Assembly: GCA_011524725.1 (NCBI GenBank)
Contig: WTJV01000008.1
Coordinates: 1-24,000, forward strand
Length of the DNA stretch: 24,000 bases
Origin: Amoebophilaceae bacterium
Lineage (GTDB): Bacteria > Bacteroidota > Bacteroidia > Cytophagales > Amoebophilaceae
Reading direction: 5' to 3'
Shown: positions 10,096 through 13,806 of the stretch, in pieces
How the letters are laid out: every line of letters begins with the position of its first letter
How positions within the stretch are numbered: the first letter of the stretch is position 1
Notes under the pieces: generated by a model
The model's input: only the letters and a program-made list of their open reading frames with translations
Told to the model about the DNA's origin: nothing
The model's database searches: none
Program-made: the position numbers and the translations under genes

Positions 10096-13000
10096 TTGTT
10101 TCACCTTAAACCCATATCGTCTATGTTCTCGAGCTTTCGATTGACCACATCTATTTTCCTATTGCTGGCAGTGCTATCGCATTGCCAACCTTCGGGCAAC
10201 TTGTCGATGTCAGAAGAAGCTTCCTCTCGAGAAGCATTCTCTGCTCTGTCTCCAACTTCTTTCTCTGTCTCTTCCCCGCTGGCCGCTCTACCCAGTTCTA
10301 GTAGTGAGATCATTTCTTTTCGTGGCTCATCGGGAGGTCAGATACGGTTTAGTCAGGAAGGGGATAGCTGGTATGGATCGACCTCTGAGGGTAGGTTCCC
10401 GGTCCAGCATAACTCGTCCATCTCGGCGGGTTCGTATCTATCTTGGCTTTCTGATCAGGAAGCTAGTGTGGTTCGCTCTCGGGTGCACGTGATACCGAGT
10501 TCAGCAAGCCCGACAGGCGAGTCGAGTGTATACTTGGGTAGGTTGGGGTTAATGGGGGGTATGCAAAGCTCCGCGCCCCTCGCCCGCGACACTTCTGCTC
10601 CGGTGTGGCTATCGGCTACCCGTGAGAAGCAAGTTCATAGTGTGGTGACCGTAGGCCCTGATAAGGAAGTGAACATTCGCTATGTGATACGTCGAGGCTG
10701 GCGCTGTATCAGTTATTTCTTGCGTACTGTGCAAGAGAACCCACATGCGACCTCCTATGTAGAAGAGTTGCAGCAGGACTTTGCTTACACCCATAGTGAC
10801 CACGAAGTTCGTGGCCAGCACCATACTATGCAGCAAGGTATATCGGGCCCGAGTGTAGAGATCCCCTCGTTGGGCGTAGAAGCCGACCTTCAGCTAGGTC
10901 AGCAAGCCCAGCAAGGTCAGGGTATGCAGCAGTATACGACACAAAGCGCCCGTACGACGCACGATGTTTTGCGTCTGGTCGCCTCCGTACCCGCTACCTA
11001 CAGAAAAAAGAAGAAGTTCGGTAGAGGCTATAAAGACAAGCCTGTCTTGGACCCTTTGAAAGTACAGTTGGGAGTCATCCTGGAGCGTATGTCTTCCGAC
11101 GAAGCTATACTATCTCCGCGTCCCTCTCTTGCAGCATATCATCCACCAGCCCCAGCTCCGGTGTCTTCTACCACCCCTAAGCCTCCCTCTGTATCAGGTA
11201 AGGTCTCCGCATCTTCTACTCCCCCTTCTACGTCAGGCAGCTCTCGTCCTACCATGACGACCTCTTCCACGCAGAGCTCGTTCGTGAGCGAAGTCACGAC
11301 TTCTTCTCAAGGTAGCAGGACCTCCTCTCGTCCACCAGCCTTTTCTCTGGCCCCACTGGACGCGGGTATAGACGTAAAGTCCCTACTACGTCGCAAGCTT
11401 GATGACCCTGATGCCGAGCTGAGTGAGGCAGAAAGTATTGCGTTGCTAACCCACTGCGTGCACGAGGGCGAGCTGAATGCGGAGAAGATCAGGGGTAAGG
11501 ACGCGTTGATGGTGATAGGGAATACAGGAGCGGGCAAGAGCACATGTTTGAATTACTTGATTGGCTGTAAGCTAGAAGGGAAGAATCCCCATGAACTAGG
11601 TTTAGATGGTCTTGAGGAGCTGATTGTGATTGCTCCCGACTCCCCTTTAGGCGAGGTGATGCCGATAAGCCACGAGGAGACCTCGAAGACGTTCATTCCT
11701 CAGGTAGAAGCCTCTCGCACGGATCCCAGTATTGCTTATTGCGACTGCCCTGGTTTCTTGGACAACCGTGGCGCCGAAATTAATATTGCGAACGCGGTGA
11801 ACATACGCCGTACGCTTCAAGCAGCTCGTTCGGTAAAGACTTTGATCTTGATCAACTACCATAGTCTTTTGGCAGACCGCTCGCGTGGCCTTCGGGAGAC
11901 ATTATCGATTTGTAGTCAGTTATTTGGCAAGCCAGCAAACCTAGAGCGTTACCAAAGCTCCTTACTACTCGGCGTTACAAAATCTCCCGTAGGCATGAGC
12001 CTAGAAGGTATGCGAGCATTTATTGCTAAATCCAACTTACCGATTGTGGAAGTACTCTCCAAGCGCGTGTTCCTATATGACCCCTTAGATAGAGGTAATG
12101 CAGACTTCTGGGTACACGCTCAGTTCGTCCGAGCGATAGACGAACTCCAGGGTATTCCTCAGAGGGAGAGTGACAAGCTATTCCGCACTGTTTTGACAGA
12201 TGGAGATGAGCGTAAGCTGCTGGACATCGTAGAGAAGCAAAGTAAAGACCTAGAGGTAGCCCTACACCGTAAGCAGTACGTACGCGCGGCCGGCTACTGG
12301 CGCTCGATGCATCGTTTGAGCGTGATCGACCACTACAGTGTAGAGCGGCTCTTGAACACAAGCTGCTTGAAGCTCCAGAAGATGCTTTCACGTAAGGTAG
12401 GTGAATTCCGCAAGTACTGCATGGACTATCGTTTTAGGGAGGCGGAGATCCGGCTCGATGAGTTAAGGGAGCTTTCTTCTCATTTCAGCAAAGAAGACCT
12501 ATACCGTTTGGAGCTGGACGTTACAGACCTGGGGAAACTGCTTGTGCACTTCAAGGATTTAGAGACCAAGCAGCTGGAGCGCGACAGACTTTTCGCCGAG
12601 CTGGAAGGGGAAGTATCTCGTATGGAGGAAGCAAAGCGTCTGTTGGAGGAGACGTACCGCAGCCAACAAGTAGAATTCTCGAAAGCTCAGAGTGCGCTAA
12701 GGGCCGAGATGGTACGCAGGGATGGGGACCACGAAGCTCAGATTTCGAAGATCAAGGAAGAGTACCAGGGTCAGCTTCAGAAGCAAGCGGAGGATGCGAG
12801 ATTACAGAAGACGGTGAGTGAGGAAGATCGGTTGCAACGGGAGAAAGAGGAAGCTAAGCTACGCCGGGCGTATGAAAATCGTTTGGCAGCCGCAGAGCAG
12901 GAGCAGCGCTCCGCGCGTGAGGAATATGAGCAGCGCTTCAAGGAGCAGGAAACCCGCCAGTTGCAGAAAGAGTCGGAGCTGCAGGCGAAGCTGACGGAGC

Positions 13001-13806
13001 TAGAAGGTAAGGCAAAGGAAGCTAAAGAAGCAGAGGAGCACGCTCGTCGCGAAGAAGCCCTTCGTCGCCGTCAGTCCGCACTTCCCGAAGAAGCGTTCGG
13101 TGCGAAAGCGTGGAAAGAATACTTTGGGGTGAAAGTCGACGATGAGCCTGCGCTTCCGCGTAACATCGAGGCTATATTGAACAAAAAGGCGCCGTTTACC
13201 TTAGAGCATGAAACTAGCCCTCAGCGTATAAGAGATAACCATGTGTTGTTTCTAGTTCCCTCTCAGGTGAATGGGGAGCCGCTTAGCTTGAATAAGCTTG
13301 GGGAGTTATCGAAGCACTATTTTCCGGGCAATGAGGAGGGATATAGGCATTATGATAGTACTGTACGGTCCCAGTTTGGTGGAAAAACACCGTCCAAGTC
13401 GTATTGGTGTCTACTAACTCGTACGGTGTTGTCGGGCAGCCGTAGTAAAAATTATAGTGATCAAAAGGCGTTGTTGAGCCAATATTCCCGTCAGGGTTAT
13501 GGCTTGCCCAGTGGCTTGGAGGCATCGACGGGGATTATGGTTCACTATGCTCGTAGTCGAGAGCGGTTGTACGGCGATGCCCCTAGGACCTACACGCGTT
13601 GCGCGGCCGAGGAGTTGGTTGGTGGAAAATGCCCGTTGTTGGGGGCTTCGGGGCGTCTGGTCCCGGTGTCAACGACTACTACCTCAGTGATGATAGTAAT
13701 AACGGCGTTGCTGGTTGCTGGAAGTTCTAGGCCATTGGTCTTTGGAAACTTGTTGTGGGCTGGCCTTGGTTTCTTGCTCCTTAGGTCTTGGGAACTTGTG
13801 GTGTAG
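10096..13806 (+). CDS. DGR variable (target) protein: signal peptide, S/T/P-rich linker, P-loop GTPase-like domain, long coiled coil and a C-terminal variable domain. Apparent 1-nt frameshift just before the VR; the likely true start is ATG 10123 and the likely true stop is TAG 13728..13730 in another frame.
   Basis: 1236-codon ORF. MFSSFRLTTSIFLLLAVLSHC reads as a signal peptide, possibly with a lipobox. Other elements are Walker A GNTGAGKST, DCPG, and an E/K/R/Q-rich heptad-like stretch. The 3' end carries the VR repeat matching the TR beside the RT. The C-terminal domain resembles, from memory, ...YWCLLTR..GSR..Y.DQ..LL....YTRC...VVGGF....GVAG..KF proteins of host-associated bacteria. Confidence 0.85.
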   Translation: MFHLKPISSMFSSFRLTTSIFLLLAVLSHCQPSGNLSMSEEASSREAFSALSPTSFSVSSPLAALPSSSSEIISFRGSSGGQIRFSQEGDSWYGSTSEGRFPVQHNSSISAGSYLSWLSDQEASVVRSRVHVIPSSASPTGESSVYLGRLGLMGGMQSSAPLARDTSAPVWLSATREKQVHSVVTVGPDKEVNIRYVIRRGWRCISYFLRTVQENPHATSYVEELQQDFAYTHSDHEVRGQHHTMQQGISGPSVEIPSLGVEADLQLGQQAQQGQGMQQYTTQSARTTHDVLRLVASVPATYRKKKKFGRGYKDKPVLDPLKVQLGVILERMSSDEAILSPRPSLAAYHPPAPAPVSSTTPKPPSVSGKVSASSTPPSTSGSSRPTMTTSSTQSSFVSEVTTSSQGSRTSSRPPAFSLAPLDAGIDVKSLLRRKLDDPDAELSEAESIALLTHCVHEGELNAEKIRGKDALMVIGNTGAGKSTCLNYLIGCKLEGKNPHELGLDGLEELIVIAPDSPLGEVMPISHEETSKTFIPQVEASRTDPSIAYCDCPGFLDNRGAEINIANAVNIRRTLQAARSVKTLILINYHSLLADRSRGLRETLSICSQLFGKPANLERYQSSLLLGVTKSPVGMSLEGMRAFIAKSNLPIVEVLSKRVFLYDPLDRGNADFWVHAQFVRAIDELQGIPQRESDKLFRTVLTDGDERKLLDIVEKQSKDLEVALHRKQYVRAAGYWRSMHRLSVIDHYSVERLLNTSCLKLQKMLSRKVGEFRKYCMDYRFREAEIRLDELRELSSHFSKEDLYRLELDVTDLGKLLVHFKDLETKQLERDRLFAELEGEVSRMEEAKRLLEETYRSQQVEFSKAQSALRAEMVRRDGDHEAQISKIKEEYQGQLQKQAEDARLQKTVSEEDRLQREKEEAKLRRAYENRLAAAEQEQRSAREEYEQRFKEQETRQLQKESELQAKLTELEGKAKEAKEAEEHARREEALRRRQSALPEEAFGAKAWKEYFGVKVDDEPALPRNIEAILNKKAPFTLEHETSPQRIRDNHVLFLVPSQVNGEPLSLNKLGELSKHYFPGNEEGYRHYDSTVRSQFGGKTPSKSYWCLLTRTVLSGSRSKNYSDQKALLSQYSRQGYGLPSGLEASTGIMVHYARSRERLYGDAPRTYTRCAAEELVGGKCPLLGASGRLVPVSTTTTSVMIVITALLVAGSSRPLVFGNLLWAGLGFLLLRSWELVV
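11480..12100 (+). other. P-loop NTPase (GTPase-like) module inside the target protein
   Basis: G1/Walker A GNTGAGKST is at 11518..11544 and a DxxG-like DCPG at 11743..11754. A possible [NT]KxD-like GVTKSP lies downstream. Domain boundaries are approximate. Confidence 0.6.
12580..13090 (+). other. Approximately 170-aa highly charged predicted coiled coil inside the target protein
   Basis: The translation runs LERDRLFAELEGEVSRMEEAKRLLEE...EAKEAEEHARREEALRRRQ. It is a continuous E/K/R/Q/A/L-rich stretch with no Pro and only a few Gly. Confidence 0.6.
13629..13733 (+). repeat. DGR variable repeat (VR) at the 3' end of the target gene
   Basis: About 100 nt, roughly 90 percent identical to the reverse complement of 15372..15476. 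In the frame ending at TAG 13728 it encodes MPVVGGFGASGPGVNDYYLSDDSNNGVAGCWKF*. Confidence 0.87.

Follow-up and report, generated by a model that had tools for sequence, protein, structure and literature searches.

The targets of diversity-generating retroelements (DGRs) are typically multi-domain proteins with a variable repeat (VR) at the C-terminus (Roux 2021, PMC8144416), and the two cellular targets that have been studied in detail, Legionella LdtA with its demonstrated diversification and Treponema TvpA with its solved structure, are simple surface lipoproteins (PMC10907252). DGR-diversified FGS and C-type lectin (CLec) domains have furthermore been described in NTPase conflict systems of multicellular bacteria, in vWA-MoxR ternary systems as well as in iSTAND/STAND systems (Kaur 2020, PMC7159879; Dore 2024, PMC10907252), and effectors of Amoebophilus are known that carry a signal peptide, a lipobox and a lineage-specific prodomain, APD1 or APD2, and that also include GIMAP/AIG1-like GTPases (Aravind and co-workers 2012, PMC3417536). 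Here we describe a DGR and its target gene in a 24,000-nucleotide stretch of an Amoebophilaceae bacterium (contig WTJV01000008.1, positions 1 to 24,000), which is referred to as the window throughout. The target is the open reading frame (ORF) 10096-13806 on the forward strand (1,236 codons), and with moderate confidence we place this gene, which would have lost its activity recently, in a family of large lipoprotein-type, host-facing effectors of intracellular, protist-associated bacteria, made by Amoebophilaceae/Cytophagales and Chlamydiae, whose heads are diversified by DGRs. The head family, the architecture and the ecological setting are new; the kind of DGR target is not, since multi-domain and NTPase-linked targets have already been published, and the starting assumption of the first-pass annotation, that DGR targets are compact binders, is outdated for the same reason (PMC8144416; PMC7159879; PMC10907252). 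Full-text literature searches turned up no publication in which DGRs are connected with GIMAP-like GTPase effectors or with amoeba symbionts.

Architecture of the target gene and its retroelement

The target is composed of the following parts; residue numbers begin at the likely start codon, the ATG at 10123, where the public product P0001 also begins:

10123..10185 (residues 1-21), forward strand: predicted signal peptide with Cys21 in a lipobox-like LSHC (translation)
10294..10572 (residues 58-150), forward strand: N-module of about 90 residues, SSSGxRVxF...WL..Q...R.RVHVI....VYLGRLGLxGG (alignment, profile and hidden Markov model searches)
Residues 151-335, forward strand: lineage-specific stretch (relatives only in P0002)
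11128..11352 (residues 336-410), forward strand: S/T/P-rich linker (composition)
11353..12222 (residues 411-700), forward strand: G domain of GIMAP/IRG/dynamin type (AlphaFold2 model, Foldseek, PDB profile, motifs)
12223..12522 (residues 701-800), forward strand: helical bundle after the G domain (helices at model positions 286-380; kept in homologues)
12523..13077 (residues 801-985), forward strand: helical stalk of about 185 residues, proline-free and made of E/R/K/Q/L/A (composition, periodicity)
13078..13629, forward strand: constant part of the head, the C-terminal variable domain, in the frame of the main ORF (family alignments, AlphaFold2 model)
Residues 986-1202, forward strand: complete head of about 217 residues, with the VR at 1170-1202
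13630..13806, forward strand: out-of-frame, hydrophobic read-through tail of 59 codons (three-frame translation)

By translation, composition and motif positions, the ORF and its parts lie where the first-pass annotation had placed them, including the hydrophobic N-terminal signal with its possible lipoprotein cysteine and the S/T/P linker (29% S, 16% P and 15% T). It had also let the ORF end in the VR, which is not the case, as the VR lies in another frame and the last 59 codons are read-through. Exact look-ups of the target protein returned no entry on record. The homology search with the whole protein yielded seven proteins only, with coiled-coil and low-complexity words saturating the candidates, and profile searches were therefore carried out domain by domain. 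Seven full-length or near full-length relatives align along the entire target, the domain order recurs in homologues with identities of 33-56%, and homologues with a lipobox-type signal, N-module, S/T/P linker, G domain, stalk and variable domain are found in metagenome-assembled genomes (MAGs) of Amoebophilaceae, Cytophagales and Chlamydiae. With hidden Markov models (HMMs) of the three conserved modules, N-module, G domain and head were detected in this order in the window and in four further loci (L006, L009, L027 and L028), and a G domain followed by a head in three others (L007, L008 and L012). Because this order is conserved among homologues, the target is one gene, as had been assumed, and a fusion of several decayed genes was rejected.

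The hydrophobic N-terminus, MFSSFRLTTSIFLLLAVLSHC, ends in Cys21, and homologues likewise carry a hydrophobic stretch followed by a cysteine, as in LLLQ[NS]C (including LLLQNC) or FSGC; a loose lipobox pattern was matched by 28 of 47 N-module proteins. The target is predicted to be exported as a putative lipoprotein-type protein. Its N-terminal third gave no Pfam match even at E <= 10, and the first-pass annotation had not recognised it. This stands for residues 151-335, whose relatives are limited to P0002, whereas residues 58-150 turned out to be a module (HMM match in the window, E = 1.6e-41) for which an exhaustive profile search returned 187 cluster representatives. It is always placed at about positions 50-250, in proteins of 126 to 2954 residues, and the domains combined with it include TPR arrays, HEAT repeats, GTPases and the STAND NTPases, NB-ARC and NACHT among them. 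The consensus of an N-module protein is a lipobox signal, the N-module, a variable middle part and often the same head. The Amoebophilus APD effectors share the order of signal, lipobox Cys and a lineage-specific N-terminal domain that is common to diverse effectors, as well as the GTPase clade and the host lineage, the N-module being likened to their prodomains by description only; the description of these effectors draws no link to a DGR or to a hypervariable C-terminal domain (PMC3417536).

The retroelement follows the target gene and consists of four parts, comprising the VR, a reverse transcriptase (RT) gene, avd and the template repeat (TR):

13629..13733, forward strand: VR, 105 nucleotides, coding frame MPVVGGFGASGPGVNDYYLSDDSNNGVAGCWKF*, ending with TAG at 13728-13730 (TR/VR alignment)
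13878..14987, reverse strand: RT, intact ORF with LGNVTSQ and YCDD (RVT_1, E = 1.3e-23; translation)
14986..15345, forward strand: avd (bAvd), divergent from the RT gene and interrupted by TAG (PF22296 on a 53-residue remnant)
15372..15476, reverse strand: TR, encoding ...GLNVNNNNLNDNSNNGVAGCWKF, with 9 Asn (AAY) codons (TR/VR alignment)

This retroelement is a DGR, and the identification of the gene as a DGR target was correct. TR and VR are 89% identical over 105 nucleotides, and eight of the ten substitutions in the body of the repeat fall on TR adenines, which make up 24% of the TR (binomial p = 3e-4); the remaining two are T-to-G/C changes at TR thymines. In its own frame, the VR encodes ...GPGVNDYYLSDDSNNGVAGCWKF*. 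The RT has the RVT_1 domain, the [LI]GxxxSQ motif of DGR-type enzymes in the form LGNVTSQ, and YxDD in the form YCDD. The RT gene is convergent to the target gene, and the TR lies beyond avd on the RT strand. This corresponds to the B3 architecture TR-(avd)-RT (Wu 2018, PMC5758913), with TR and RT on one strand and avd between them on the other, which is also found in two intact cassettes, L006 from an Amoebophilaceae MAG and L029, the sole further locus obtained from an RT-based scan of metagenome contigs. Nothing essential distinguishes the window from the B3 core, apart from the convergent orientation of its target and the state of its avd, which is a pseudogene. In L006, the RT is about 75% identical to that of the window (74.6% by tblastn, 76% by alignment), and TR and VR differ mostly at adenines. 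The window target has in common with LdtA of Legionella pneumophila and TvpA of Treponema denticola the lipoprotein-type N-terminus, a C-terminal binding domain whose last ~35 codons hold the VR, the adenine-directed TR/VR differences and the host-associated bacterium; LdtA and TvpA, however, are essentially a signal and a CLec domain, whereas about 950 residues precede the head of the window target, and this head has no Pfam or PDB sequence match.

Two further observations concern the surroundings of the VR. The sequence after the VR stop codon is conserved (window 13731-13810, L006 4645-4724, L027 9424-9500, L010 842-940) and contains TTGG-rich units about 10 nucleotides apart, which may represent a cis element for retrohoming; a hairpin or cruciform downstream of the VR was not supported (z = -0.66 in the window, inconsistent among loci), and no stable hairpin is predicted. 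Independent RT-carrying metagenome contigs end at 13440 (two contigs) and at 13768 (three contigs) and thus on both sides of the VR. The TR/VR repeat does not explain these breaks, and strain heterogeneity is a possible cause.

G domain, stalk and variable head

Pfam detected only a P-loop in the NTPase module, with MMR_HSR1 (4.6e-4) and Dynamin_N (0.012) both below threshold. The P-loop proved not to be spurious, and by its modelled fold and its catalytic motifs the module is a true G domain of the GIMAP/IRG/dynamin type, in line with what had been read from the sequence before. A profile search found at least 204 homologues. The region 408-793, modelled by AlphaFold2 with 73 homologues, reached a predicted local distance difference test score (pLDDT) of 94.2, and Foldseek matched it in the PDB to GIMAP7 (4.8e-7), GIMAP1 (3.3e-6) and Irgb10 (6.5e-6), followed by mitofusin, dynamin, MxA, Irga6, Toc34 and BDLP, all with a probability of about 1.0. 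The best PDB sequence-profile match was again Irgb10 (E = 0.003), in an alignment that also covers the helices ahead of the P-loop. The G1 motif GNTGAGKST (at 11518), the G2 Thr (SKTF) and the G3 motif DCPG (at 11743) are invariant or nearly so in the 73 sequences, and a long motif after G3, FLDNRGAEINIANAVNI, with the switch-II-like CPGFxDNRGxEINIANAxNI, is as conserved as G1-G3. This conservation argues for a working enzyme rather than a spacer. The eukaryotic GIMAP, IRG (Irga6, Irgb10), Toc34 and dynamin-superfamily proteins have in common with the window protein G1-G3 and the fold of the G domain, including the helices on either side of it (Foldseek E = 5e-7 to 1e-3); in contrast to them, the window domain is bacterial, is only ~11-18% identical, carries DNRGxEINIANAxNI after G3, and has G[IV]TxxP as its G4 motif (GVTKSP at 11971 in the window) in place of [NT]KxD. 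As the guanine-specifying Asp is absent from G4, the term GTPase is a call on the level of the fold and not of specificity.

The MAGs in which G-domain relatives were found belong to Amoebophilaceae, Cytophagales, a 1.4-Mb 'Roseivirga', Chlamydiae, Legionella, Holosporaceae and Marinamargulisbacteria. Most of these groups are intracellular or protist-associated, and almost all relatives fall into such lineages, namely Amoebophilaceae, Chlamydiae, Legionella, Holosporaceae and genome-reduced Cytophagales. Two homologues, P0143 and P0242, come from eukaryotic transcriptome sets, one labelled Rhodomonas salina, and may be contaminants from symbionts or genes that protists acquired by transfer. 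The contig L007 (JAJCXW010000235), with G domain and head, is binned as Acidimicrobiales, probably in error; another locus with G domain and head (L008) comes from a Chlamydiae MAG of the same study series (OFTM).

In the bundle and stalk (12223-13077), there is no proline in 285 residues (701-985), and the composition is rich in E/R/L/A/Q/K. The long, proline-free helical stretch rich in E/K/R/Q that the first-pass annotation took for a coiled coil is thus real, but its hydrophobic autocorrelation is weak (0.19 at lag 4 and 0.07 at lag 7), and with so little heptad periodicity the stretch may be either a coiled coil or a single alpha-helix of the ER/K type.

The head defines a family of at least 459 proteins, as found with a profile of eight copies. 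The top 120 matches all had E < 1e-84 and were proteins of 210-408 residues in which the head is without a Pfam domain. Neither the window domain nor 61 members of the family matched Pfam even at E <= 10, and there was no PDB sequence-profile match. Many members are short, with nothing but a head behind the signal; lipobox-type signals, for instance LLCALLLQNCQS or LLLQSCK, stand at the start of many, and HEAT or TPR repeats occur in some. Two heads are present in P0003, P0004 and P0008-P0013; in P0003 and P0004 the second copy is internal, between N-module and G domain (L028 6727-7392 and 9763-10410). Three head genes lie in tandem in L031 (6849-10133), and in L032 (491-9005) a gene for a 2,510-residue TPR/AAA_22 protein overlaps the start of a head gene by 23 nucleotides, the pair probably being one STAND-type NTPase of about 2,800 residues with TPR arrays and a variable head, divided in two by a frameshift or by an artefact of gene calling.

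Taken together, the family members bear the signature of DGR diversification, because column entropy in 61 members peaks at the positions of TR-encoded Asn (3.17 bits versus 1.13 elsewhere), and because the VR of P0002 differs from the TR peptide of the window, within the variable stretch, only at Asn codons. As in DGR proteins whose fold is that of C-type lectins, the variable residues are confined to the C-terminal strands and loop and are AAY-encoded in the TR. The AlphaFold2 model of the head (pLDDT 83, predicted template-modelling score 0.86) has the order beta-alpha-alpha-beta-beta-beta-beta in its C-terminal half; Foldseek found nothing with E < 0.09, and its weak lists were led by or enriched in C-type lectin domains, including SP-A and CD93 (TM 0.27-0.31), langerin and a herpesvirus C-type lectin, and also contained Mtd and TaqVP. 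The C-type-lectin fold that had been suggested for the C-terminal domain is hinted at by the model, but neither sequence searches against Pfam and PDB nor significant Foldseek matches bear it out.

Lesions of the cassette and possible roles of the protein

The first-pass annotation had referred to a frame-corrected C-terminus, and this correction reflects a genuine frameshift in the DNA. The VR frame is -1 relative to the ORF of 1,169 codons, so that the VR is not in frame with the rest of the target gene, and three-frame translation maps the shift to an A4 run (13626-13629) where the TR/VR homology has its 5' edge. In the closest homologue, P0002 (56% identity), the same junction is in frame and reads ...AAEELVGGKRPLLVGGFGASGLFVARNVLSDGSSYGVAGCWKL, and it is in frame at the loci L006 and L027, the latter being the locus of P0002. 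Two other metagenome assemblies (L001 and L002) contain the same frameshift, with 99.99% identity and no gaps over 10.5 kb, and the deposited protein P0001 carries the same frameshifted sequence. A sequencing error was judged unlikely, because the other assemblies are identical in this respect and every other gene of the window except avd is intact, including the RT gene; the TR is intact as well. In avd, a TAG at 15103-15105 replaces the Gln codon of the L006 orthologue (YTLW*RCE versus YTLWQRCE) and splits the HMM match in two, whereas L006 and L029 have an intact avd. Both other assemblies that cover the VR show the identical sequence, which favours inactivity. With the frameshift at the VR edge, the nonsense codon in avd and the two non-adenine changes in the VR, the DGR does not work as written, contrary to what had been supposed, and the system is dead or dying. 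Frameshifts in VRs and non-adenine changes have been recorded in other DGRs (Wu 2018, PMC5758913), and from its position, which is the 5' junction of retrohoming, the lesion may have arisen when a cDNA was integrated faultily or through slippage in the A run. Another member of the head family, P0108, has a frameshift inside its VR and an Ala/Thr-rich out-of-frame tail, like the window protein.

A different kind of loss is seen at L027. By blastn, this locus matches window positions 13081-14124 (85%) and 15473-15744 (82%), and the intervening 1.35 kb are missing; L027 has therefore kept both flanks and lacks window positions 14125-15472, that is, most of the RT gene, avd and the TR. Two sister lineages thus lost the DGR by different routes, one by a frameshift and a nonsense codon and the other by deletion of the core, and intact, damaged and deleted cassettes form a natural series that shows the loss of a DGR during genome reduction.

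Our preferred reading of the family starts from the intact form at L006, which comprises a lipobox-type signal, the N-module, the S/T/P linker, the G domain with its bundle, the stalk of ~185 residues and a putative binding head of ~217 residues, of which a DGR whose core is TR-(avd)-RT would rewrite the last ~13 variable residues. The protein would be exported, anchored by a lipid and directed towards the host, the diversified head would select the ligand, and the G domain, in a nucleotide-dependent manner, and the stalk may oligomerise or form a scaffold at the ligand site, as GIMAP, IRG and dynamin proteins do on membranes. In the window copy, the -1 frameshift precisely at the 5' junction of the VR takes the VR out of this protein. 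The architecture, with a G domain and a stalk ahead of the head, argues for more than a simple adhesin, as the first-pass annotation had proposed. Several points weigh against this reading. The window lipobox, LSHC, is non-canonical, and export, lipidation and host contact are predictions from sequence; a P-loop NTPase behind a Sec/lipoprotein signal would be odd unless the protein reaches the host cytosol; the G4 motif lacks the guanine-reading Asp, so that the nucleotide preference is not fixed by sequence; and there is no RT near most of the head-family members that were examined, for which we infer diversification in trans or in the past. Furthermore, the other 1,169 codons of the window gene are uninterrupted, and a truncated protein might still be made and used.

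In these bacteria, whose habitat is the interior of eukaryotic cells, a conserved G domain with its stalk carries a head that is written by a DGR, and the same head is also carried by repeat scaffolds and by NLR-like NTPases. If the proteins face the host, DGRs would diversify effectors rather than adhesins, and bacterial hypermutation would be linked to the way in which immune GTPases of eukaryotes are mimicked or subverted. Tentatively, we can go one step further and consider it possible that protist symbionts (Amoebophilaceae-like Bacteroidota and some Chlamydiae) hypermutate the heads of a whole arsenal of exported eukaryote-like effectors via DGRs, with the head and its DGR moving between scaffolds and phyla; GTPases of the GIMAP/IRG-like type, NTPases with NACHT or NB-ARC, and scaffolds of TPR or HEAT repeats would be among these effectors. 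Such an arsenal would amount to an adaptive effector repertoire against molecules of the host or of rivals, a role that has so far not been assigned to DGRs, and its basis would be a family of variable domains absent from the descriptions in any database.

An alternative is that the protein serves the bacterium's own defence as an 'antigen sensor' of a conflict system, with the head detecting a molecule of a phage or another invader and the NTPase switching on a response in the bacterium or its envelope. Relatives indeed fuse the same N-module and head to NACHT, NB-ARC, other STAND NTPases and TPR arrays in the place of the G domain and thereby resemble the conflict systems, DGR-diversified CLec/FGS-NTPase proteins are a precedent for a hypervariable C-terminal head coupled to an NTPase (Kaur 2020, PMC7159879; Dore 2024, PMC10907252), and AIG/GIMAP-clade GTPase effectors have been noted in iSTAND systems (Kaur 2020, PMC7159879). 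[quoted passage not shown] We therefore consider a defence sensor unlikely. It is improbable that the protein is a plain surface adhesin such as LdtA or TvpA that only displays its variable head, with G domain and stalk as a passive spacer or vestige: the lipoprotein-type signal and the C-terminal VR are those of the two studied cellular targets (PMC10907252), and many family members are no more than a signal and a head, but G1, G2, G3 and the switch-II-like motif are near-invariant in 73 homologues with identities of 33-55%, and the G domain is modelled with high confidence. The canonical slippery site is X XXY YYZ, and Avd is essential in the Bordetella DGR. A regulated rather than broken gene, in which the frameshift at GGA-AAA-T is bypassed by low-level -1 ribosomal or transcriptional slippage or the junction is toggled by the DGR as a form of phase variation, is highly improbable: the lesion lies in an A4 run precisely at the retrohoming junction, if tRNA-Lys slipped by -1 on AAA, the reading ...GGK-MPVVGGFG... 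would be restored, P0108 is likewise shifted, and RT and TR are intact, but the heptamer is not canonical, transcriptional slippage needs more than an A4 run to be efficient, a nonsense codon interrupts avd, independent assemblies agree in the VR sequence, and the sister lineage deleted the DGR core outright.

The island and its neighbourhood

The target gene and the DGR core form an island:

9836..15744, no strand assigned: island of target gene and DGR core (blastn against L027, GC content, gene lists)
15779..15854, reverse strand: tRNA-Pro, 35 nucleotides past the right boundary of the island (ARAGORN, Rfam)

Homology between the window and L027 is limited to 9836-15744, with different flanking genes, and homology to L006 also stops at 15744. 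The GC content of the island is 0.498, as compared with 0.446 and 0.435 in the flanks. No att-like direct repeats of at least 10 nucleotides were found at the island ends. The synonymous divergence (dS) between window 10123-13629 and L027 6001-9423 is uneven, with 0.16 in the constant part of the head, 0.96 in the N-module and saturation in the G domain, the stalk and elsewhere; this pattern would result from a recent exchange of head and DGR as one module or from a much higher rate of evolution in the remainder of the gene. In our reading, the head with its DGR acts as a module that can be transferred, and target and DGR together act as an island.

The tRNA-Pro has the anticodon AGG according to ARAGORN, which is unusual in bacteria. 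MutL of the window is 68.6% identical to MutL of a 1.05-Mb Cytophagales MAG (L009), where the gene adjoins a full-length homologue of the target, and a CorC-like gene of the window scores best against the GldE subfamily, below the cutoff of the model. Two paralogous AAA_14 + DUF4143 ATPase genes (8465-9628 and 20258-21391) are 73% identical over 300 nucleotides (8970-9269 versus 20745-21044), and one of them lies directly upstream of the island. A non-coding repeat of about 230 nucleotides at window positions 6-239 is 95.7% identical to L027 14138-14371; partial copies are present at window 20067-20128 and L027 5707-5740, and the repeat resembles a dispersed intergenic repeat family.

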